Assembly (NCBI RefSeq): GCF_988243305.1
Contig: NZ_OZ547136.1
Reading direction: 5' to 3' (one strand)
DNA: 64,000 nucleotides
The notes beneath the pieces are model-generated. The model had not been told where the DNA came from. It did no database searches and saw only the letters and a list, made by a program, of their open reading frames with translations. The position numbers and the translations under genes are program-made. Below are positions 29,648-40,137 of this stretch, piece by piece; the stretch's first letter is position 1; each line of letters starts with the position of its first letter.

Positions 29648-30553
29648 ATGAATAGCTTAGATATTGTAGTTGCCTTCGGCGGCGGCATATTTGGTGCGGC
29701 TGTTGGAGCGCTGGCGGCGTTTGAATTCGTTGGGCTTCTGGTTATCGCCATGACGGTAGTGCAAATTATTACCGGAGCATCATCGGACTTTATTACTTTT
29801 CCGTTTGGACTGTTTGGCCCGCACACCGGCGGCTTTGCCGCTGGGGTTGCGGCGACGGCGTATGCAGCGAAGAAAGGCAAGCTGGGTTCCGGGCGTGATA
29901 TCACTGCCGGGTTGAGCGGTCTGGCGGCTTACGATGTGCTGCTGGTAGGCGGGGTTTTTGGGGCGGTTGGTTACATCATCGCCTGGGGGTTGAACCAGAT
30001 TCCGGCCTTCCCGTCCGGCAATGCTTGGACCGATACCGTGGCACTAACCGTGGTGATTTCTGGCGTGGTCTCGCGTCTGGTTTTCGGTAAAACTGGCCTG
30101 TTTGGAAAACCGGAGCAGGGAATTCGTCACTGCTATCCGCCGCAGGATAAGTGCTGGATACCTTACCATAGCCGCATTCCGCAGCTTTCCGTGCTGGGCT
30201 TGGGTATTGGCTTGATGGCAGGCTTTTTAGGCCTGAAGTTTGGCGGCAACGGCGCGCTGCTGGCGTTTGGTATTTCCGCGTTCTCACTGATTTTCCTGCA
30301 TTTCAATACTCAGGTACCGGTGTCACATCATATTTCGCTGCCTGCCGCGTTGGTAGCGGTGCCATCAGGTAGCCTGATTTGGGCTGCTATCGTTGGCATA
30401 ATTTGCGCGATATTGGGTGAACTGATGTCGCGTATCTTCCTGATCCACGGCGATACACATATTGACCCGCCGGCGATGGTCATCACCATTATGACCACGA
30501 TGATTAATCTGTTGGCGACCATTGGATTATTTACCTTGGTTCCCCTGTTTTAA
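29648..30553 (+). CDS. Polytopic integral membrane protein (possible substrate/product channel of the GRM locus)
   Basis: 301-aa highly hydrophobic ORF, Gly/Ala-rich helices; good RBS. Confidence 0.65.
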   Translation: MNSLDIVVAFGGGIFGAAVGALAAFEFVGLLVIAMTVVQIITGASSDFITFPFGLFGPHTGGFAAGVAATAYAAKKGKLGSGRDITAGLSGLAAYDVLLVGGVFGAVGYIIAWGLNQIPAFPSGNAWTDTVALTVVISGVVSRLVFGKTGLFGKPEQGIRHCYPPQDKCWIPYHSRIPQLSVLGLGIGLMAGFLGLKFGGNGALLAFGISAFSLIFLHFNTQVPVSHHISLPAALVAVPSGSLIWAAIVGIICAILGELMSRIFLIHGDTHIDPPAMVITIMTTMINLLATIGLFTLVPLF

Positions 30554-30565
30554 TCCCGCCATAAC

Positions 30566-30600
30566 AAAAAGCCAGCAGTGTCTGCCTGCTGGCTTTTTGT
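30566..30600 (+). terminator. Rho-independent terminator (also the probable group II intron target)
   Basis: Hairpin GCCAGCAG-tgtctgc-CTGCTGGC followed by TTTTT, 13 bp after stop codon. Confidence 0.7.
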
Positions 30601-30603
30601 TAT

Positions 30604-32406
30604 GTGCGCCGTGACTGGCGCTGTTCTTCAACTGTGGTGGCAGAAGAACGACTAAGAGGTGAAAGTCCTCCACACACCCGGTGAGGGGAAGTGTTAGCGG
30701 AAGGCAAGGGTGTTCATCGCGAGGTGAAATCTGAAGGAAGCTGGATGCAAAATGCTGGCCTGACGAACAGGAAGCGGTTAAGTCGGCGCAGCAGGGTAAG
30801 GTGGCACAAATCACCAAAGCCCGATACTCACACGGAACGCTGTGACGTAAAGCCGACAGGCATAAGCAGGAAAGTCGCGTGAATTACCCCGGGAGATCTG
30901 TCGCCCTGCCAGTGTGCTACCGGCGCCGTGAGGCGCCGGGATGGGGCGGCAGAAGTCAGCCGACGCCGTAGTAGTGCTGCAAAACCGGCAGCATGAAGGG
31001 CCGAACATGATTAACTGTGATTAGGACATCCGAACCCGATGATGATTAATGAAGCACAAGCGCAGGCAACTGCGACCAGCGGCAGAGGAGACGGACAGTA
31101 TCCGTCAGGGCTGCATGATGGCGCTGAAATCAGCACGGCGGCGGGTGGGCAAACGAAAGCGGAAGTGCCGCTGACGATGGAAGCGGTGATAACGAGAGAA
31201 AACCTGATGCTGGCTTATCAGCGCGTGGTGGAAAACAAAGGCACGGCGGGGGTGGATAACCTCAGCGTGGCGGAGTTGAAACCGTGGCTGAAGAAGAACT
31301 GGCGCAGCGTCAGGCAGGCATTGATTGACGGAAACTACCAGCCGCGGGCAATACGCCGGATGGATATCCCGAAGCCGCATGGCGGCGTGAGAACCTCAGG
31401 CATCCCGACGGTGGTGGACAGGCTTATCCAGCAGGCGGTGCAACAGGCACAGCGTTACATACGGGGTGGCAAACGGTGGGTGGTGGATATGGATCTGGAG
31501 AAGTTCTTCGACCGTGTGGATCACAGACTCCTGATGACGCGTCTGGCCAGAACGATAAAGGACAGGCGGGTGCTGTGACTGATACGCCGCTACCTGAAAG
31601 CGGAAATGGTTAAAGACGGGCAAAGGGAGAAACGGCAGGCGGGCATGCTGCAGGGCGGCCCACTGTCGCCGTTACTGTCGAACATCCTGCTGGATGAACT
31701 GGATAAAGAACTGGAGCGTCGTGGACACAGCTTCTGCCGCTACGCAGACGACTGCAACATCTACGTAAGCAGCCGGAAAGCGGGCGACCATCTGCTGAAG
31801 AACATCAGGGCGTTCGTGGAGAACAAACTGAAGGTGAATGAGAAGAAGAGCGCGGTGGCGCGCCCGTGGGATCGGAAGTTCCTCGGGTACAGTGTGACAT
31901 GGCACAAACAGGCGAAGCTGAAGATAGCCCTGACGAGCGTGAACAGGCTGAAGGAGAAAGTCCACAGTCTGACGACGGGAAACCGGAGCAAATCAGTGAA
32001 AGCGACAATCAATGCTCTGACACCAGTGCTGTGTGGATGGATAAGCTACTTCAGGCTGACGGAAGTCAGAGGAGTGCTGGAGGAGCTGGATGGCTGGATC
32101 AAACGGAAACTGCGTTGCTTGTTGTAGCGGCAGTGGAAGAGACCGCTAACCCGGGCAAAGAACCTGCAAAGAGCAGGACTGAGTAAGGACAGGGCAATGA
32201 TCTCTGCGTACAACAACCACGGGCCATGGTGGAACTCAGGGTCAAGCCATATGAATCAGGCGATAAAGAATACATGGTTCAGGAGGCAGGGTCTGATATC
32301 ACTGCTGGAACAGTAGAGGCAGTTCCAGAGTTAACATGAACCGCCGTATGCGGAACCGCACGTACGGTGGTGTGAGAGGACGGCGGGAGTGATCCCGCCT
32401 CCTACT
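30604..32406 (+). mobile_element. Group II intron (bacterial class C-like, inserted just downstream of a terminator hairpin), degenerate
   Basis: 5' end GTGCG at 30604; domain V-like hairpin at ~32341-32372; internal RT/maturase ORF; 3' boundary approximate. Confidence 0.7.
31039..32316 (+). pseudogene. Group II intron reverse transcriptase/maturase with two in-frame stop codons and an internal deletion
   Basis: RT motifs (LEKFFDRVDH, QGGPLSPLLSNILLD, YADD); in-frame TGA at 31576-31578 and TAG at 32125-32127 with homology continuing downstream (GPWWNSGSSHMN); ~30 aa missing after LIQQAV. Confidence 0.75.
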
Positions 32407-32676
32407 CGATCAATTTTAAAACACCTCCTATGTAGGTGGTGATCGTTCATGTGGGGCTTTCTGACAGACTGCCTCGTCATTCCATTCGTATCGCCAGTAA
32501 CTGGCGTTTGTATTGTGGCAGTTCTGGTATACGTTTCCCTGTGTATCTGCACTGGTTCAGCAAGGTTTGAAAAGGAGTATCCCTTGCAAATAACCGAAGC
32601 ATTACTTTCAGAGCCGGAGCTGTTTTTGTTGCTGTGATCCATTTCAATTTTTTCGTGACAAATTATTTATAAATAT

Positions 32677-33939
32677 ATGATTATGTTTTTAAAAATGCAG
32701 GCTGAAAGTATGAAGAATAAATACAAATTAAATGAGTTTTTGGATGTAAAACGCCTTCAGACCCTGCAGGACAACTTTTCAAAATCAATGATGATCGCGC
32801 TCGTGGTTGTGGATGAGAATGGTATCCCGGTCACTAAGCCCAGCGGTTTTTCAGACTTCTGCATGCGTTCGCGTCTCAACCCGACACTGGCGCACCACTG
32901 TTATGAAAGCGACAACGCTGGTGGCCGGGCCGCGATGCACGCTCGCAAACCGGTGGTTTATCGCTGCCACTGCGGTTTTGTCGAATTCGCTGTCCCAATC
33001 ATGATTAACGATCATTATCTCGGTGCTTTTATTTCCGGTCAGGTAAAAGTCGAAGAAGAGAAAGAACAGAGCATTTCCTATATTCTGAATAATAATGACG
33101 TCTGGAAAGATAATCCTTGGTTAATTAATTTGCACCAGAATACACGTCGCATGCCGTATGAGCGTTTTGAGTCTACTGCCTCGACGTTACTACACGTATC
33201 GTCTTATCTGGTCGAACAAGCGCACACCAATAATATCCAACGCGAACTTCGTAAAAAGGATCTTGCACTGGCTAATGAGTTAAGAAAACGTGTAGAGATA
33301 GAACGCTCACTACATGAAGCTGAATTTAAAGCGCTCTCTTATCAGATAAATCCGCACTTTTTATTTAACGTATTAAATACCATTGGCCGGTTAGCTTTTC
33401 TTGAAGATGCGCAGCGTACCGAAACAATGGTGCACGATTTCTCTGACATGATGCGCTATTTGTTACGTAAAAATAGTCACGGCCTGATTACTCTGCGTAA
33501 TGAAATAAATTACGTCAACAACTATATGTCGATCCAAAAAGTGCGTATGAGAGACCGTTTCGATTACCTGTGCGATATCCCGGAAAAATATCTGGATGTA
33601 GTCTGCCCGTTTTTGATCCTGCAACCGCTGGTGGAAAACTTCTTTAACTACGTAGTGGAGCCAAGGGATAGCAATAGTCATCTGCTGATCCGTGCCACGG
33701 ACGATGGCCTGAACGTGATTATTGAAGTCACTGACAATGGCGACGGCATCGCACCAGATACCATTAATCGCATTTTATCAGGCGACCAAAAATTGCAAAA
33801 AGGCAGTATTGGCATTAACAACATAAAAAATAGATTGAAGTTGTTATTTGGCGAGAGCTATGGCTTGGAAATAATGAGCCCTAACAAACCCAGGATGGGT
33901 ACAACCATTAAACTTCGGTTCCCAATGCAGGAAGCCTGA
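32677..33939 (+). CDS. Sensor histidine kinase with N-terminal PocR ligand-binding domain
   Basis: 420-aa ORF; PocR-like N-terminus, His-kinase region ([11 protein letters not shown]) and HATPase_c; start may be at 32695 or 32710. Confidence 0.8.
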
Positions 33940-33955
33940 TACAGGAAAAGGACAT

Positions 33956-35011
33956 ATGTTTACCATTGTTATCGTTGAAGATGAGCCCATCGAATTAGAA
34001 TCCCTGCGGCAGATTATCTCCCAGTGTGTGGAAAACGCTGCGATCCATGAAGCCTCAACCGGTAAAAAAGCGATTCACTTAATTGACCAACTGAGTCAAA
34101 TCGATATGATCTTAGTGGACATTAATATTCCGTTGCCGAACGGTAAACAGGTGATTGAATATCTGAAGAAAAAAAACAGCGATACTAAAATCATCGTAAT
34201 CACGGCCAATGATGACTTTGATATAGTACGCAGCATGTACAACCTTAAAGTGGATGATTATCTGCTCAAACCAGTGAAAAAATGTATCTTGACCGACACC
34301 ATCAAAAAAACCCTAGCATTCGACGAAGGAGAAAATGAAAAATCCCGCGCCCTAAAACAGAAAGTGTTCGCCATGATAGACGATTGCGATTACACCCAGT
34401 GGCACAACTTTATTTTTGACACGCTCAACGGTGCCTGTCCGGTGGATATGATAGAAGAGGATAAGCGCAAAGACGTGATCGATTTTCTGGAAATAGTTAG
34501 CCAGTATATGACCGCCAAAGGGGAAAAGTTAATGCCGACTAACCGTAAAGTCGCCGCGCTGATCAAAGACATCAACCAGTATGGCATGATGGAAAGCCGC
34601 TATTTCCGCATCATGATCAGCCTGCTGACCATTAGCGAAGAGCTGTTTGATTACGCATTAAAAGGCTATACAGGCAATATCGATTTTATCGAACGAGCGA
34701 AATTCCATATTGAGAAAAATATTCTCAGAAACTTGACGCTCGATGACGTGGCAGCAAAATCGTTTGTCAGTGCCTGCTATTTGAGCCGTACCTTTAAGAA
34801 AATTACCGGGTTCGGGTTTTCGAACTATATTGCCACGCGTAAAATTACTATCGCCAAATCGTTATTGCGGTTCAGTGACTTACAAGTAAATACCATTGCG
34901 CTGGAACTGGCATACCAGGATTCAAACTATTTTTGCCGCATCTTCAAAAAAGATACTGGCATGACCCCCTCTGATTATCGAAAAGTCGTGTCCCCGGGAA
35001 TTACACGGTGA
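33956..35011 (+). CDS. Response regulator with AraC-type HTH output domain
   Basis: 351-aa ORF; receiver domain (IVIVEDEP...LVDINIP) and C-terminal AraC HTH. Confidence 0.85.
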   Translation: MFTIVIVEDEPIELESLRQIISQCVENAAIHEASTGKKAIHLIDQLSQIDMILVDINIPLPNGKQVIEYLKKKNSDTKIIVITANDDFDIVRSMYNLKVDDYLLKPVKKCILTDTIKKTLAFDEGENEKSRALKQKVFAMIDDCDYTQWHNFIFDTLNGACPVDMIEEDKRKDVIDFLEIVSQYMTAKGEKLMPTNRKVAALIKDINQYGMMESRYFRIMISLLTISEELFDYALKGYTGNIDFIERAKFHIEKNILRNLTLDDVAAKSFVSACYLSRTFKKITGFGFSNYIATRKITIAKSLLRFSDLQVNTIALELAYQDSNYFCRIFKKDTGMTPSDYRKVVSPGITR

Positions 35012-35078
35012 TGGCGTGATTTTGCATTGGCCCGATAATGAAAGCAAAATAGTCCAACACGCCCGCAAGATAGTTTAC

Positions 35079-35134
35079 GCCCACTTGTCAGGTTCCTATC
35101 CTAAGATAGGAATAAACTTCCCAAACAAGTGGGC
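35079..35134 (+). promoter_or_regulatory. Nested inverted repeat immediately upstream of the MetK-paralog start codon (candidate RNA structure or operator)
   Basis: Outer stem GCCCACTTGT/ACAAGTGGGC enclosing inner palindrome TTCCTATC-ctaa-GATAGGAA; ends 6 nt before the TTG start; no SD visible. Confidence 0.35.
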
Positions 35135-35139
35135 TCGCT

Positions 35140-36291
35140 TTGAACGATTACCTGTTTACCTCCGAATCCGTTGCCGAAGGGCATCCCGATAAAATGGCGG
35201 ACCAAATTTCTGATGCCATTTTGGATGCGATACTCCTACAGGACCCGTGGGGTAAGGTTGCCTGTGAATGCTTGGTGAAAACTGGTGCCACTATTGTTGC
35301 CGGAGAAATATCTACCCATGCCGCCGTGGATATTGAGAAGATTGTCCGCAACACCATAAAAGAGATTGGTTACGACCATTCGCGATTGGGGTTTGATGGC
35401 AATACCTGCTGTGTATTAAATATCCTTGGCAAACAGTCCGCCAATATTGCTGACGGCATTCGCGGCCACTCGATGGAAGAACTGGGGGCGGGCGATCAGG
35501 GCATCACCTTCGGTTACGCCTGTGATGAAACGTCGGAACTGATGCCCGCCACGCTGGTATACGCCCATCGTCTGATGGAGCGCCAGGCGCAGTTGCGTAA
35601 ATCCCAACGGTTACCATTTTTACTCCCTGATGCCAAAAGCCAGGTTACCCTGCGCTATCAGGATAATCGTGTTCATTCAGTAGATACCGTTGTGGTGTCT
35701 ACCCAACACAGCCCTGACGTTTCTCTGGACGCGCTACGGGAAGCGGTCATCGAAGAAATTGTTAAACCTGTGATGCCTTCGCACTGGCTCACGCCACAAA
35801 CCCGCTTTCTGGTGAACCCTGCAGGCAGTTTTGTGATTGGCGGGCCGGTGGGTGACTGCGGGCTAACGGGGCGTAAAATTATTGTTGATACCTATGGCGG
35901 CGCGGCTTGCCATGGCGGCGGCGCGTTTTCAGGCAAAGATCCGTCGAAAGTCGATCGTTCCGCCGCCTACGCTGCTCGCTATGTGGCGAAAAACATCGTC
36001 GCCGCTGGGCTTGCCTCACGCTGTGAAGTCCAGTTGGGATGGGCCATCGGCCTGCCCCGCCCTGTTTCCGTCAGGATTAACACCTTCGGTACACAAACAG
36101 TGTCATCTGAAGCGTTGCTGAGAGGCGTTAACAGCCATTTCGATCTTAGCGTGTTCGGCATCATTACTACGCTTGATCTGCTGGTCCCCCGCTATCGTAA
36201 AACAGCCTGCTATGGTCACTTTGGTCGCGACAGCTTTCCGTGGGAAGTTACGGACAAAGCGGCGCTATTATACGAAGACGTTGGACGTTAA
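35140..36291 (+). CDS. metK: S-adenosylmethionine synthetase (MetK paralog embedded in GRM locus)
   Basis: 383-aa ORF with MetK motifs [23 protein letters not shown] start inferred from alignment to MetK N-terminus; diverges from E. coli MetK as recalled. Confidence 0.85.
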
Positions 36292-36335
36292 GCCGACGAC
36301 GCGCAGCACAGTTGAATTTATTACAGGAGAAATTT

Positions 36336-36881
36336 ATGTCTGGGAAAAGTTTAGGCTTAATCGAAACCGTCGGGATGTCTGCGGCGGTAGAAGCCGCCGA
36401 TGCCGCAATGAAATCCGCTAACGTTAGTCTGGTAGGCTATGAATTGACGAAAGGCGGCGGGATGGTGACCGTGAAGCTGGAAGGGGAAGTGGGCGCAATT
36501 AACGCGGCGGTAGCGGCAGCCATCAGCGCGGCAAGCCGGGTTGGCGAGGTGTATGCCCATAAGGTGATCGCCCGCACCGCGCAGCATATCGAGCAGATTA
36601 TTCACTCTAAAGTGACCGCCGGCGTCGCAGAACCTCAACCTGAAGTGCCTGCTGCACAACCGACACTGCAGGCTGAAAACGCGCCTTCACAGACATTCCC
36701 GGTGGTTAACCTTGATACGTCAATCAGCGCATCCTGTATGGATGTCACTGATGAAACGCTGAAGTCCATGGAGCAGCATCAACCGGTTAAACCCTCAATA
36801 GAAAACACTAAACCTACAAAATCTGATGTACCGCAGGAGGCAGCAAAGAAAGGTCCTCGTTCCAGCGGCAAGAAAAAATAA
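36336..36881 (+). CDS. BMC-H shell protein with long low-complexity C-terminal extension
   Basis: Start at ATG 36336 with RBS ACAGGAGA; BMC domain (MSGKSLGLIETVGMSAAVEAAD) then ~90-aa Pro/Ser/Lys-rich tail. Confidence 0.8.
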   Translation: MSGKSLGLIETVGMSAAVEAADAAMKSANVSLVGYELTKGGGMVTVKLEGEVGAINAAVAAAISAASRVGEVYAHKVIARTAQHIEQIIHSKVTAGVAEPQPEVPAAQPTLQAENAPSQTFPVVNLDTSISASCMDVTDETLKSMEQHQPVKPSIENTKPTKSDVPQEAAKKGPRSSGKKK

Positions 36882-36899
36882 GTAAATTGCTATGACGCT

Positions 36900-36937
36900 G
36901 CCGCGATAACAATTTCTTTATCGCGGCATTTTTTTGC
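36900..36937 (+). terminator. Rho-independent terminator at end of GRM locus
   Basis: Hairpin GCCGCGATA...TATCGCGGC followed by ATTTTTTT, 19 bp after stop. Confidence 0.65.
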
Positions 36938-37237
36938 TTAACAGATAAAGTAAAAAACCATCTGCATAGCGGGCGGCTTTGACACGGCCCCCTGAAAGGG
37001 GGCTTAAACACTACCCTTTCAGGCCCAGTTGTATTTGTCTTTCTTCTTCCTCTTTTGCTACCTTGTTCGAAAAGGGACGCTCGTCCTCGCCCACTGTTCT
37101 GTATGCATACCTGCTCCCACTGCAAATTATATTGCTGGGCTATGTTAACAAGCCTATATGCTATTAAAAACTCATGAGCAACATATTGATAATACCATTC
37201 TTATATATCCACGCTTAAGTAAATAACTCTTACATAA

Positions 37238-37582
37238 CTAACTATTCCATCTCACTTCTTCCTTAGCGAGTTTTCGGTATGCAATAGGAGCTATACCAAA
37301 GCGGCGAGTAAATGCCCTTGTAAATGTCTGCTGAAAATCAAACTGATATTTAAAAGTGATAGTCGTGACCGATTCAGTAGTAGAACGTAGTTCTTCTGCT
37401 GCATTTATTAATATACCTACCAATAGAAATACCAATGATATGTTTAAACAATTTCTGTAAATACCATTTTGAATATCCAGCTTTTTTGCCTCAATATTTA
37501 TTGAGAGTTCTACCTCAAGATTTTCATCAATTCATTTAGCAAGCTCATTGATATCAGCGCTGTTTTTTATAGTAGCGTTCAT
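37238..37582 (-). pseudogene. MarA/SoxS-family AraC-type regulator with in-frame premature TGA codon
   Basis: Translation MNATIKNSADINELAK-stop-IDENLEV...QQTFTRAFTRRFGIAPIAYR aligns with SoxS/MarA; stop sits where homologs have Trp; start overlaps 3' end of TetR-family gene. Confidence 0.5.
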
Positions 37583-38225
37583 TTTTATCGATGCCTGTGA
37601 AGGTTGATTGGGTCAACTCCAGTACTATGCAACCCTCTCTGAAAAGGGATTTATTATCAGGTTGCAGAATGCAACTTCGCACCACCCCCGTAAACAAAGA
37701 AAAAAGCAGGAACGCCAGAGCCTCACTACGAATTTCCGAACATATTTCTCTATATAACTTACCTTTTTCGAAAATATAACATAGTAATTTCACAAAATTA
37801 TTGACATCCACCATTTTTTGTAAGAAATTTATTCTTATATCATCCGGACATTCTTCACAAAAAAACACAATATAAATTACATTCCGTAAGTGTACATTAT
37901 ATTGTAATTTAATCAGGCTACGTGATAAGCAACGATACATCGCTTTAACCGGTTCAGAAACTCTCCCATTTTTGATGGCTGTAAGCTCATCAAATAATGA
38001 TAGTGGTACCCGCTCGATGACTTGTCGCAGAAGATCTTTTTTTTCGTTGAAATACCAGTATATGGCCCCCCGAGTACAACCTGCGCGCACCGCAATCATC
38101 TCCAGTGTCGTCTTCGAAAAGCCCGTCTCACAAAAGCAGAACTCTGCCGCATCCAGGATTTGTTTGCGGGTTTCTTCCGCTGCAAATTTTGTGTGCCGCA
38201 CCACTGTTGAAATCTCCATTGACAT
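37554..38225 (-). CDS. TetR-family transcriptional regulator (AcrR/EnvR-like)
   Basis: 223-aa ORF with N-terminal TetR HTH (TRKQILDAAEFCFCETGFSKTTLEMIAVRAGCTRGAIYWYF). Confidence 0.8.
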   Translation of the reverse strand: MSMEISTVVRHTKFAAEETRKQILDAAEFCFCETGFSKTTLEMIAVRAGCTRGAIYWYFNEKKDLLRQVIERVPLSLFDELTAIKNGRVSEPVKAMYRCLSRSLIKLQYNVHLRNVIYIVFFCEECPDDIRINFLQKMVDVNNFVKLLCYIFEKGKLYREICSEIRSEALAFLLFSLFTGVVRSCILQPDNKSLFREGCIVLELTQSTFTGIDKNERYYKKQR

Positions 38226-38324
38226 CTTATTTCAGGAAATATCTCTGGGGCATTTAGTACCAACCCAACAGCCATTTACTCAGGCGCAGTATGTTGTTTA
38301 CTGCACCTGAATATTTACTCATGC

Positions 38325-39481
38325 TTATGATTGCTCAGCTTCAGTCTTATCCGATGATTTCTTATTTCTGCGGCTGAAGAACCCGGCAATTAACATATAG
38401 AAGAGAGGAATATAAAAGATTGCCAGTATCGTAGCAGTGATCATCCCTCCAACCACACCAGTACCGATGGCATGTTTACTTCCGGAACTTGCTCCAGTCG
38501 AGACAGCCAGTGGGATAACCCCCATTACAAATGCCAGCGAAGTCATAATTATCGGTCTTAACCTCACTCTCGCCGCTTCAACAGCAGCCTCTTTAATGCT
38601 TAGTCCTTCTTTCTCATGCAATTCACGAGCAAACTCCACGATAAGTATGGCATTTTTCGCAGACAGCCCTATTGTTGTTAATAAACCGACCTGGAAAAAG
38701 ACATCGTTACCAAGGCCGCGCAACAAAGTAGCACAGACAGCCCCCAGGACACCAAGCGGAACAACCAGCATGACCGAGAAAGGAATGCTCCAGCTTTCAT
38801 ACAGTGCAGCCAGACACAGAAAGACGATCAACAGTGAAAGTGCATATAGTGCAGGAGCCTGAGAACCTGAAAGTCGTTCCTCAAAAGACAAACCTGTCCA
38901 GGAAATATGGAAACCTTCGGGAAGTCTTGCCGCAATATCCTCAATTGCTTTCATTGCATCCCCGGAACTGTATCCTGGTGCCGGTTCCCCCAGGATTTCG
39001 ACAGCAGAGATACCATTATATTGCTCCAGTTTTGGTGAGCCATAAATCCATTTGCCTGTTGCAAAAGAGGCAAAGGAAACCATGTCGCCATCACTGTTAC
39101 GGACATACCATTTATCAAAATCCTGCGGTGATATACGTGAGCCGGGTTCGCCCTAAATATAGACTTTTTTCACCCGTCCACGATCGTTAAAATCATTTAC
39201 ATACATCGAACCCCAGGCTGCTGGCATTATGTTGTCGACGTCGCTCATGCTCAGTTTAAGCGCCTGAACTTTCTCGTCATCAATCAGAATCTGGAACTGA
39301 GGCTCATCGTTCATGCCGTTAGGACGAACCATGTTTAACGCTGGACTTTTCGCCGCTTCAGCAAGAAGCTGATTTCGGGCCTGGATCATTTTTTCATGGC
39401 CAGCTCCGCTACGATCCTCGAGGAACAGGTCAAACCCTGTAGCATTCCCCAGTTCTGATACGGCAGGGGGCGTTTTAAAAC
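38325..39481 (-). pseudogene. RND efflux transporter (AcrB/AcrF-like) 3' remnant, frameshifted and truncated by IS2
   Basis: 252-aa ORF matches AcrB C-terminal TM bundle; adjacent 78-aa ORF (39153-39389) matches an internal AcrB segment in another frame; 5' end replaced by IS2 at 39482. Confidence 0.75.
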
Positions 39482-39833
39482 TAGACTAGCCCCCAGAATC
39501 TCCAGACAACCAATATCACTTAAATAAGTGATAGTCTTAATACTAGTTTTTAGACTAGTCATTGGAGAACAGATGATTGATGTCTTAGGACCGGAGAAAC
39601 GCAGACGGCGTACTACACAGGAAAAGATCGCTATTGTTCAGCAGAGCTTTGAGCCGGGAATGACGGTCTCCCTTGTTGCCCGGCAACACGGTGTGGCAGC
39701 CAGCCAGTTATTTCTCTGGCGCAAGCAATACCAGGAGGGAAGTCTTACTGCTGTGGCCGCAGGAGAACAGGTCGTTCCTGCCTCTGAACTTGCTGCTGCC
39801 ATGAAGCAGATTAAAGAACTCCAGCGCCTGCTG
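39482..39833 (+). mobile_element. IS2 left-end fragment with truncated orfA (InsC-like)
   Basis: Terminal sequence TAGACTAGCCCCCAGAATCTCCAGACAACC and InsC N-terminus [26 protein letters not shown]...; homology ends near 39833. Confidence 0.8.
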
Positions 39834-40137
39834 AACAAAACGCCGGATGTCTCCCGGCTCTGAAATTAAGGCTTCGGTTATTTGCACGAAATGTTCCTTT
39901 TCAAACCCTGTTGAATTTTGTTAAGCCGGTGCAGACACACGGAAAACGCACATCAACACCGGACGGTACGATACAAACACCAGTGACTGGCGGGACGAAG
40001 GGAATGACGAATCAGTCAGGAAATGATGACAAACAGTTGGCAGACCAGAGGAGTCAGCAGAAAGATGAGCGGGAGTGTCGCCAGCATCGGGGACAGGGCT
40101 GATTTCCGCAATACCAGCGCCGGCATTGCAACACGTT

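Follow-up and report, generated by a model that had tools for sequence, protein, structure and literature searches.

Because a nested inverted repeat straddles the core of what appears to be an activator-dependent promoter in front of grpR, an accessory methionine adenosyltransferase gene of Escherichia coli, transcripts induced at this promoter would lack the 5' arm of the repeat. Transcripts that read through from the upstream grpPQ genes would carry this arm, and in them it would pair with a weak ribosome site and block the translation of GrpR. This gives a model for how GrpR translation could be kept off in read-through transcripts. We put the probability of the whole statement, namely that grpR is a known paralog, that it has an embedded activator-dependent promoter, and that the repeat works by fold-back, at roughly 45%.

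The window (the whole 64-kb stretch of DNA that was analysed) is a genomic island of E. coli. It carries the grp locus, which serves the glycyl-radical utilisation of 1,2-propanediol with a GRM3-type microcompartment; a genetic study of this locus in E. coli CFT073 was reportedly published by Lundin et al. in 2020 in J Bacteriol. Open reading frame translation, profile search and PGAP annotation agree on grpR, a MetK paralog of 383 amino acids encoded on the plus strand at 35,140 to 36,291 from a TTG start codon. The TIGR01034 metK profile matched GrpR with 588 bits (cutoff, 309.4) and covered residues 5 to 377 of 383, and the MetK chains in the Protein Data Bank (E. coli MetK structures) gave a full-length match with an E-value of 6e-165. 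PGAP places the start at the same TTG, which is the first possible start because an in-frame TAA lies upstream at 35,113 to 35,115; grpR orthologs have TTG, GTG or ATG at this position. Hundreds of E. coli genomes have an annotated grpR with 100% identity to this sequence and with the matching neighbors grpP, grpQ, and grpS; the RefSeq annotation reads [quoted passage not shown], with grpQ and grpS on either side. In the window, grpQ (33,956 to 35,011, plus strand; open reading frame and annotation) encodes a response regulator with an AraC-type output domain, a candidate binder of the boxes described below, and grpS (36,336 to 36,881, plus strand; sequence and annotation) lies downstream of grpR, encodes a BMC shell protein, has a strong AGGAG ribosome site and is presumably cotranscribed with grpR. 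We are almost certain that this open reading frame is grpR, the accessory MetK paralog already known from Grp, a glycyl-radical 1,2-propanediol microcompartment locus of the GRM3 type. Thus far, the sequence-only reading was borne out: it had described a full-length MetK-family enzyme with its catalytic motifs, starting at TTG and placed between two-component regulators and a shell gene.

That reading had also called the gene a dedicated paralog, leaving room for it to be the only metK of its genome. A megablast search of the region against 5426 complete E. coli genomes located the grp region in 538 of them, 535 at an identity of at least 99%. A sensitive search with the coding sequence found 5964 places in 5425 of the 5426 genomes, and 5964 equals 5426 + 538. 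Carriers hold two places, grpR and metK at about 65.5% nucleotide identity, and noncarriers hold one, so grpR is a true second copy; the housekeeping metK was present in all of the carriers (538/538). The description as a dedicated paralog is therefore supported, though it was already known.

We aligned 11 GrpR orthologs with four housekeeping MetKs. The residues H14, D16, K165, D238, R244, K245, K265, K269, and D271 (E. coli MetK numbering) all fell in invariant columns, and GrpR is, as judged from this alignment, catalytically intact. A loss of the catalytic Arg244, suspected from the string GGAACH, was rejected; R244 is the Arg of the invariant LTGRK motif, and the variable Arg/Cys is at position 256, which we take to be Ala in human MAT2A. 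The alignment revealed no N-terminal or C-terminal extension of GrpR relative to MetK, and an encapsulation peptide is therefore not evident. GrpR shares 63% identity with E. coli MetK. The GrpR clade, sampled from E. coli, Enterobacter, Atlantibacter, Silvania, Buttiauxella, Dryocola, Brenneria, Rahnella, Raoultella, Pectobacterium, and Vibrio, shows 65 to 96% internal identity and at most 66% identity to any housekeeping MetK. Among themselves, the housekeeping MetKs of gammaproteobacteria share 73 to 76% identity. On these identities, GrpR forms a MetK clade of its own, which is old and moves with the locus, and is not a recent duplicate. The order of a PocR-type kinase, an AraC-type response regulator, GrpR, and a BMC shell gene was found in all 12 orthologous loci inspected in other genera, with the qualification that in one Buttiauxella locus (L085) the gene caller reported no shell gene downstream of grpR.

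That a glycyl-radical microcompartment locus can have a SAM synthetase of its own is known both from the literature and from RefSeq naming. S-adenosylmethionine synthetase was listed as an ancillary gene of GRM3 loci by Axen et al. in 2014, and the rationale, the supply of SAM for glycyl-radical enzyme activation, was given in the same paper (PMC4207490). A 2025 paper used grpR as a reporter of grp induction and found its expression lowered in a grpPQ deletion strain under anaerobic conditions with 1,2-propanediol (PMC11724981). Our literature search found no description of the grpR leader, boxes or inverted repeat. From its context, GrpR would make SAM for the radical-SAM activase GrpN, which is its presumed role; since the SAM demand of an activase is small, the physiological need for GrpR is putative. 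The age and separateness of the GrpR clade bear on the question of why an activase with a low SAM demand comes with its own synthetase.

We compared leaders from 25 distinct orthologs taken from genomes and metagenomes, 24 from Enterobacterales and one from Vibrio. The 128-bp spacer between grpQ and grpR bears no annotation, and it would be a regulated promoter region made up of two direct-repeat boxes, an upstream inverted half-site, and a −10 element of the form TAnnAT. In the ortholog alignment, the promoter-proximal putative activator box R2 (GCAAGATAGTTTAC, 35,065 to 35,078, plus strand) is centered at about −42.5 from the predicted start, and its direct repeat R1 (GCAAAATAGTCCAA, 35,044 to 35,057, plus strand) lies 21 bp upstream with its center at about −63.5; such centers are classic activator positions. 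The spacing between these 14-bp repeats was 21 bp in 25 of 25 orthologs. A repeat search also showed an inverted pair, ATTTTGC-N18-GCAAAAT (R0/R1, 35,019 to 35,050, no strand assigned), directly after the grpQ stop codon. The alignment further points to TAAGAT at 35,102 to 35,107 (plus strand), in the loop of the hairpin described below, as the proposed −10 hexamer, with a predicted start near 35,114 and a predicted 5' UTR of about 26 nt. T1, A2, A5, and T6 of the TAnnAT hexamer were invariant in 24 orthologs, and these coincide with the key positions of a −10 element. The distance from the start of R2 to the hexamer was 36 bp in 23 of the 25 orthologs, 37 bp in E. coli, and 26 bp in Vibrio; that is, the interval is fixed at 36 to 37 bp in length in 24 of 25, and the sequence within it varies freely. 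The −35 region is poor, as would suit an activator-dependent promoter. A scan of the spacer with a simple sigma-70 consensus found no promoter, a result that is compatible with an activator-dependent promoter and is no proof of one. We infer TAAGAT as the −10 hexamer and likewise the transcription start site, a protein that binds the boxes, and an effect of the hairpin in vivo; that the promoter is embedded in the inverted repeat we consider likely.

The boxes recur at other promoters of the locus. The pair TTTTGC-N18/19-GCAAAA is also found upstream of grpA and grpH, and the box consensus is matched perfectly at three sites in the window, all of them in grp intergenic regions. With a box matrix built from grpR leaders only, five of the best 18 other matches fell in the approximately 630 bp upstream of grpA and grpH, and 12 matches scored above the threshold against 2.05 expected. 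This matrix scan placed a box pair upstream of grpA at 16,387 to 16,400 on the minus strand and 16,419 to 16,432 on the plus strand, and boxes upstream of grpH at 22,131 to 22,144 (minus), 22,164 to 22,177 (plus), and 22,185 to 22,198 (plus, weak). We propose that TTTTGC-N18/19-GCAAAA together with the 21-bp direct repeat is a candidate operator common to three grp promoters and a site where the GrpPQ system, implicated in the virulence of uropathogenic E. coli, may bind. GrpQ would be the candidate activator. The published GrpQ footprint on fimS scored −5.9 with the box matrix, no better than shuffled sequences, so the only experimental site does not support GrpQ binding to the boxes.

The nested inverted repeat just before the start codon, noticed in the sequence-only reading, is real. 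Its outer arms, found by repeat search and folding on the plus strand, are GCCCACTTGT at 35,079 to 35,088, in the −35 region of the proposed promoter, and ACAAGTGGGC at 35,125 to 35,134, at +12 to +21 from the predicted start; they are exact complements (10/10). Between them is the inner palindrome TTCCTATC-CTAA-GATAGGAA (35,093 to 35,112, plus strand; repeat search and ortholog alignment), whose arms, at 35,093 to 35,100 and 35,105 to 35,112, are also exact (8/8). The nested repeat ends 5 nt before the grpR start codon. As RNA, the repeat region has a folding energy of −28.7 kcal/mol (z = −6.1), and none of 200 dinucleotide shuffles was as stable; z-scores of the E. coli hairpin ranged from −6.1 to −6.8. 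The gene had also been described as having no Shine-Dalgarno sequence, and this holds in so far as a canonical AGGAGG is missing. A weak, G-rich Shine-Dalgarno-like AAGTGGG is nevertheless present in the sequence 6 nt before the start (35,127 to 35,133, plus strand), inside the outer 3' arm, and its GTGG core is nearly invariant among 24 orthologs. In the E. coli group, AAGTGGG is paired with a predicted probability of 1.0 when the 5' arm is present.

The repeat might be functionless, a neutral by-product of a template-switch (quasipalindrome) mutation in a free promoter spacer, with the weaker pairing in other lineages due to chance between GC-rich segments. The inner palindrome occurs only in E. 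coli, and its closest relatives have TTGCC-CC where the 5' arm TTCCTATC stands; clustered changes and a 1-nt insertion relative to these sequences produce the perfect palindrome. Clustered changes that create a perfect palindrome are a signature of template switching, and the inner palindrome does look like a lineage-specific template-switch mutation that stiffened the hairpin. The hairpin z-score is also close to zero in roughly a third of lineages, as expected if the repeat were neutral; it was about 0, for a hairpin strength near random, in L067, L086, L089, L093, and L099. The leaders share no consensus structure (see below), and this and the low hairpin strength weigh against fold-back as well. 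The outer stem behaves differently. It is a perfect 12-bp stem, CCACTTGTCTGG/CCAGACAAGTGG, in a strong-hairpin group formed by E. coli, Enterobacter E76, Atlantibacter, and Silvania, and two single substitutions in relatives (L083 and L122) convert pairs to G.U on the plus strand. In Dryocola, Brenneria, Buttiauxella, and L120, arms of unrelated sequence pair at the same place. These observations argue against a neutral repeat, which we consider unlikely.

The same comparison bears on a repeat that works as DNA. A dimeric repressor could bind the two outer arms flanking the promoter core, given that the perfect repeat overlaps −35 to +21 of the proposed promoter and that the E. coli z-scores are similar on both strands. 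The arms, however, are 36 bp apart, and they are not conserved, as other lineages have complementary pairs of unrelated sequence in their place; the palindrome is found nowhere else in the window or the genome, and in a palindrome read as DNA, substitutions of the G.U type would leave mismatches. A palindromic operator, which the sequence-only reading had offered as one of two possibilities, is therefore unlikely, since the arms differ completely between lineages, and the repressor on the outer arms we regard as very improbable.

We calculated the energy needed to open the ribosome site in the two kinds of transcript. In E. coli, the computed value was 18.0 kcal/mol for the read-through transcript against 8.0 kcal/mol for the short one. 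Over the 25 orthologs, the means were 13.9 and 6.6 kcal/mol, respectively, with the read-through value higher in 25 of 25, a comparison to be read with the caution that longer RNAs always offer more pairing partners. As a control for this, the upstream sequence was shuffled; the real one gave the stronger occlusion of the ribosome site in 19 of 21 orthologs (mean z = +2.0), an effect that is modest in many lineages and reaches z-scores of at least 4 in E. coli, L082, L083, L002, and L120. This excess over shuffles also speaks against a neutral repeat. The geometry, in which the predicted start follows the 5' arm and the ribosome site is covered by the 3' arm, fits fold-back if TAAGAT is the −10 hexamer. 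Read-through from grpPQ would be in keeping with the lack of any predicted terminator between grpQ and grpR. These calculations suggest that the repeat probably acts on the ribosome site; for fold-back as its function, we infer odds slightly short of even.

A transcription start further upstream would turn the same hairpin into a 5' UTR element of the main grpR transcript. A −10 element inside R2 would set the start just after this box, near 35,077 to 35,081, and thereby put the whole hairpin into every transcript; the entire leader of approximately 60 nt would be one hairpin beginning at most 3 nt from the 5' end, and it would make translation constitutively low or conditional and perhaps protect the RNA from 5'-end-dependent decay. 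R2 does contain −10-like hexamers, CAAGAT or GATAGT, with an invariant A2 and T6, and the regions in front of grpA and grpH have AAACAT hexamers with the same spacing from R1. The 5' arm of several lineages begins at the TAC that ends R2. The complete pairing of the ribosome site in the E. coli group and the lower mean hairpin z-score on the plus strand (−2.3, against −1.5 on the minus strand) would be expected here as well. However, R2 repeats R1 at 21 bp, and a regulator that binds both boxes would therefore occupy −16 to −3 and obstruct RNA polymerase. This start would also leave the conservation of the TAnnAT loop and its fixed spacing of 36 to 37 bp from R2 unexplained, and the pairing shows no consensus structure in register. 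We therefore think a start inside the R2 region rather unlikely, and return to fold-back from the TAAGAT promoter as the preferred reading.

The leader had been called structured, and a scan for SAM riboswitch classes had been suggested. We searched Rfam with the 211-nt leader (34,990 to 35,200) at E-values up to 10, with the 10 kb from 30,000 to 40,000, and at the gathering score with 12 orthologous loci; neither a SAM riboswitch class nor any other family matched in the leader. RNAalifold predicted no consensus pairs for the 24 Enterobacterales leaders. When the E. coli outer stem was imposed in register, 55% of cells paired, against 48% in shuffles and 31 to 48% in slid controls. What stands of the structured leader is thus a real, nonrandom repeat in E. 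coli; a known RNA family and a consensus fold in 24 leaders were not found. On these results, we class the leader neither as a riboswitch nor as an RNA with a conserved fold. A ligand-sensing RNA of a new kind, such as a riboswitch that responds to SAM and has the conserved CUAAGAUAGG loop as its binding core and covarying stems gating the ribosome site, would account for loop nucleotides that are conserved beside stem sequences that vary. In other phyla, riboswitches often control genes for MetK, and to our knowledge there is no SAM riboswitch in Enterobacterales. Besides the failed matches and the missing consensus fold, the positions that do not vary match T1, A2, A5, and T6 of a −10 hexamer exactly, and the structure is a simple hairpin without a multihelix junction or a detectable pseudoknot. 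We consider a ligand-sensing RNA highly improbable.

Several other elements were considered and rejected. No terminator-like site was predicted in 34,800 to 35,300, where a GC-rich hairpin with a U-tract is lacking; CTCGCTTTG follows the 3' arm, and an intrinsic terminator or attenuator was dismissed. A repeated element of the REP or MITE type does not fit, as grp carriers have a single copy of the leader spacer and other genomes have none. MetJ met-boxes were rejected by eye, with only half-box resemblances (AGAC and GTCT), not in tandem, in the arms. A CsrA site with GGA in the loop is not kept across orthologs. Coupling to an upstream small open reading frame was set aside, since the GTG at 35,129 opens a four-codon frame in E. 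coli only and is not conserved. A sigma-54 promoter in GTGGCA was rejected because its transcription start would fall inside the coding region.

A broader claim can be made only tentatively, and we hold it to be doubtful. The grpQ–grpR spacer may be an undescribed regulatory module of Enterobacterales and possibly Vibrio, in which the −10 element is ambiguous and the promoter is deliberately embedded in a fast-evolving inverted repeat; only induced transcripts, and not those that read through from the constitutive sensor genes, would then translate the private SAM synthetase of the organelle. In a rarer version of this proposal, the conserved loop would be a ligand- or protein-binding RNA.

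Compared with known systems, GrpR belongs to the same fold family as housekeeping E. coli MetK (PDB 1FUG, 1RG9, and 7LL3) and is of nearly the same length (383 against 384 amino acids), and the GrpR clade differs from the housekeeping clade consistently at seven positions, namely, T43C, V106I, L121I, T227A, M254A, Y300W, and P337V. Its regulation is unlike that of E. coli MetK: tandem MetJ met-boxes are absent, and the gene has a TTG start and a weak ribosome site. With the SAM synthetase of GRM3 loci, there is no difference in the gene itself, which is the same one, and the proposed role is the same. Like the SAM riboswitches of metK genes (SAM-I, SAM-II, SAM/SAH, and others), the grpR leader is a structured element directly in front of a SAM synthetase gene and overlapping its ribosome site; it differs from these classes in having neither an Rfam sequence or structure match nor a conserved fold.

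The boxes resemble the AraC/XylS-type promoters represented by I1/I2 of araBAD, where direct-repeat half-sites are 21 bp apart and the proximal one abuts the −35 region. The grpR promoter would share the two direct repeats, the 21-bp spacing, the centers near −42 and −63, and the poor −35 region, and GrpQ has an AraC-type output domain, as do the regulators of such promoters. The grpR arrangement differs from the araBAD type in its extra inverted half-site upstream and in the dissimilar GrpQ footprint on fimS, and the binder of the boxes is putative. For the repeat, the closest parallel is the fold-back inhibition of transposase translation in IS10 and IS50, reportedly described by Davis, Simons and Kleckner in 1985 and by Krebs and Reznikoff in 1986. 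Unlike these transposons, grpR belongs to a metabolic operon, its transcription start is predicted, and the effect on translation is a computed one. The likeness would lie in an inverted repeat that straddles the gene's own promoter, so that only transcripts started upstream carry the 5' arm, which pairs with the ribosome site.

The interval between grpO and grpP in the glycyl-radical 1,2-propanediol microcompartment (grp) locus holds a group II intron on the plus strand (window 30713-32410). Two Rfam matches to group II intron D1-D4 cover 30713-30882 (135 bits) and 30917-31001 (74 bits); a third, to domain V/VI, covers 32339-32410 (50 bits). All three are on the plus strand. The intron is probably decayed, because its reverse-transcriptase ORF is broken into two short parts (31039-31578 and 31606-32127). 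Compared with the corresponding stretch of strain FDAARGOS_497 (L001 17163-17777), window 32128-32676 is shorter by 66 bp, a shortfall placed between the reverse-transcriptase ORF and grpP. The gene offset between the two strains changes from 14965 upstream of this stretch to 14899 downstream of it, which amounts to an indel polymorphism close to the 3' end of the intron.

Immediately 3' of grpO lies a terminator-like palindromic region (30521-30662, both strands), with weak Thr_leader matches on both strands and a GC hairpin at 30606-30621, a little upstream of the intron. This region may be the insertion target of the intron, and would stop the main grp transcript ahead of grpP. The grpPQRS genes are convergent with the main grp operon in other genera, whereas the two are co-directional in E. 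coli; given this difference in orientation, the intron in E. coli sits at a rearranged junction.

A candidate operator, TTTTGC-N18/19-GCAAAA, is common to the regions upstream of grpA (16387-16432), grpH (22131-22198), and grpR, the accessory MetK paralog gene; its extended form is GCAA[A/G]A[T/A]AGT[C/T][C/T]. It bears no resemblance to the published footprint on fimS of GrpQ, the AraC-type response regulator. A further box-like sequence, GCAATATAATTTGC (37122-37135, minus strand; score 15.0 on the matrix built from grpR leaders), sits downstream of the shell protein gene grpS, in the spacer between grpS and a divergent HTH gene, and may be a chance match. On an mRNA presumed to be shared, grpR (from 35140) has a TTG start and a weak ribosome site, whereas grpS (36336-36881) has an ATG start and a strong AGGAG site, which implies a predicted output of GrpR much lower than that of GrpS.

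GrpR residues 255-257, "AAC" (window 35905-35913), include the equivalent of MetK R256 (GGMARH). Cys occupies this position in the GrpR proteins from E. coli, Enterobacter E76, Atlantibacter, Buttiauxella, Pectobacterium, and Vibrio, and Arg occupies it in those from Silvania, Dryocola, Brenneria, Rahnella, and Raoultella: a repeated Arg/Cys flip adjoining the active-site loop. The Cys of "TACYGHF" is present in most GrpR members, and the position of MetK T43 is a fixed Cys in GrpR.
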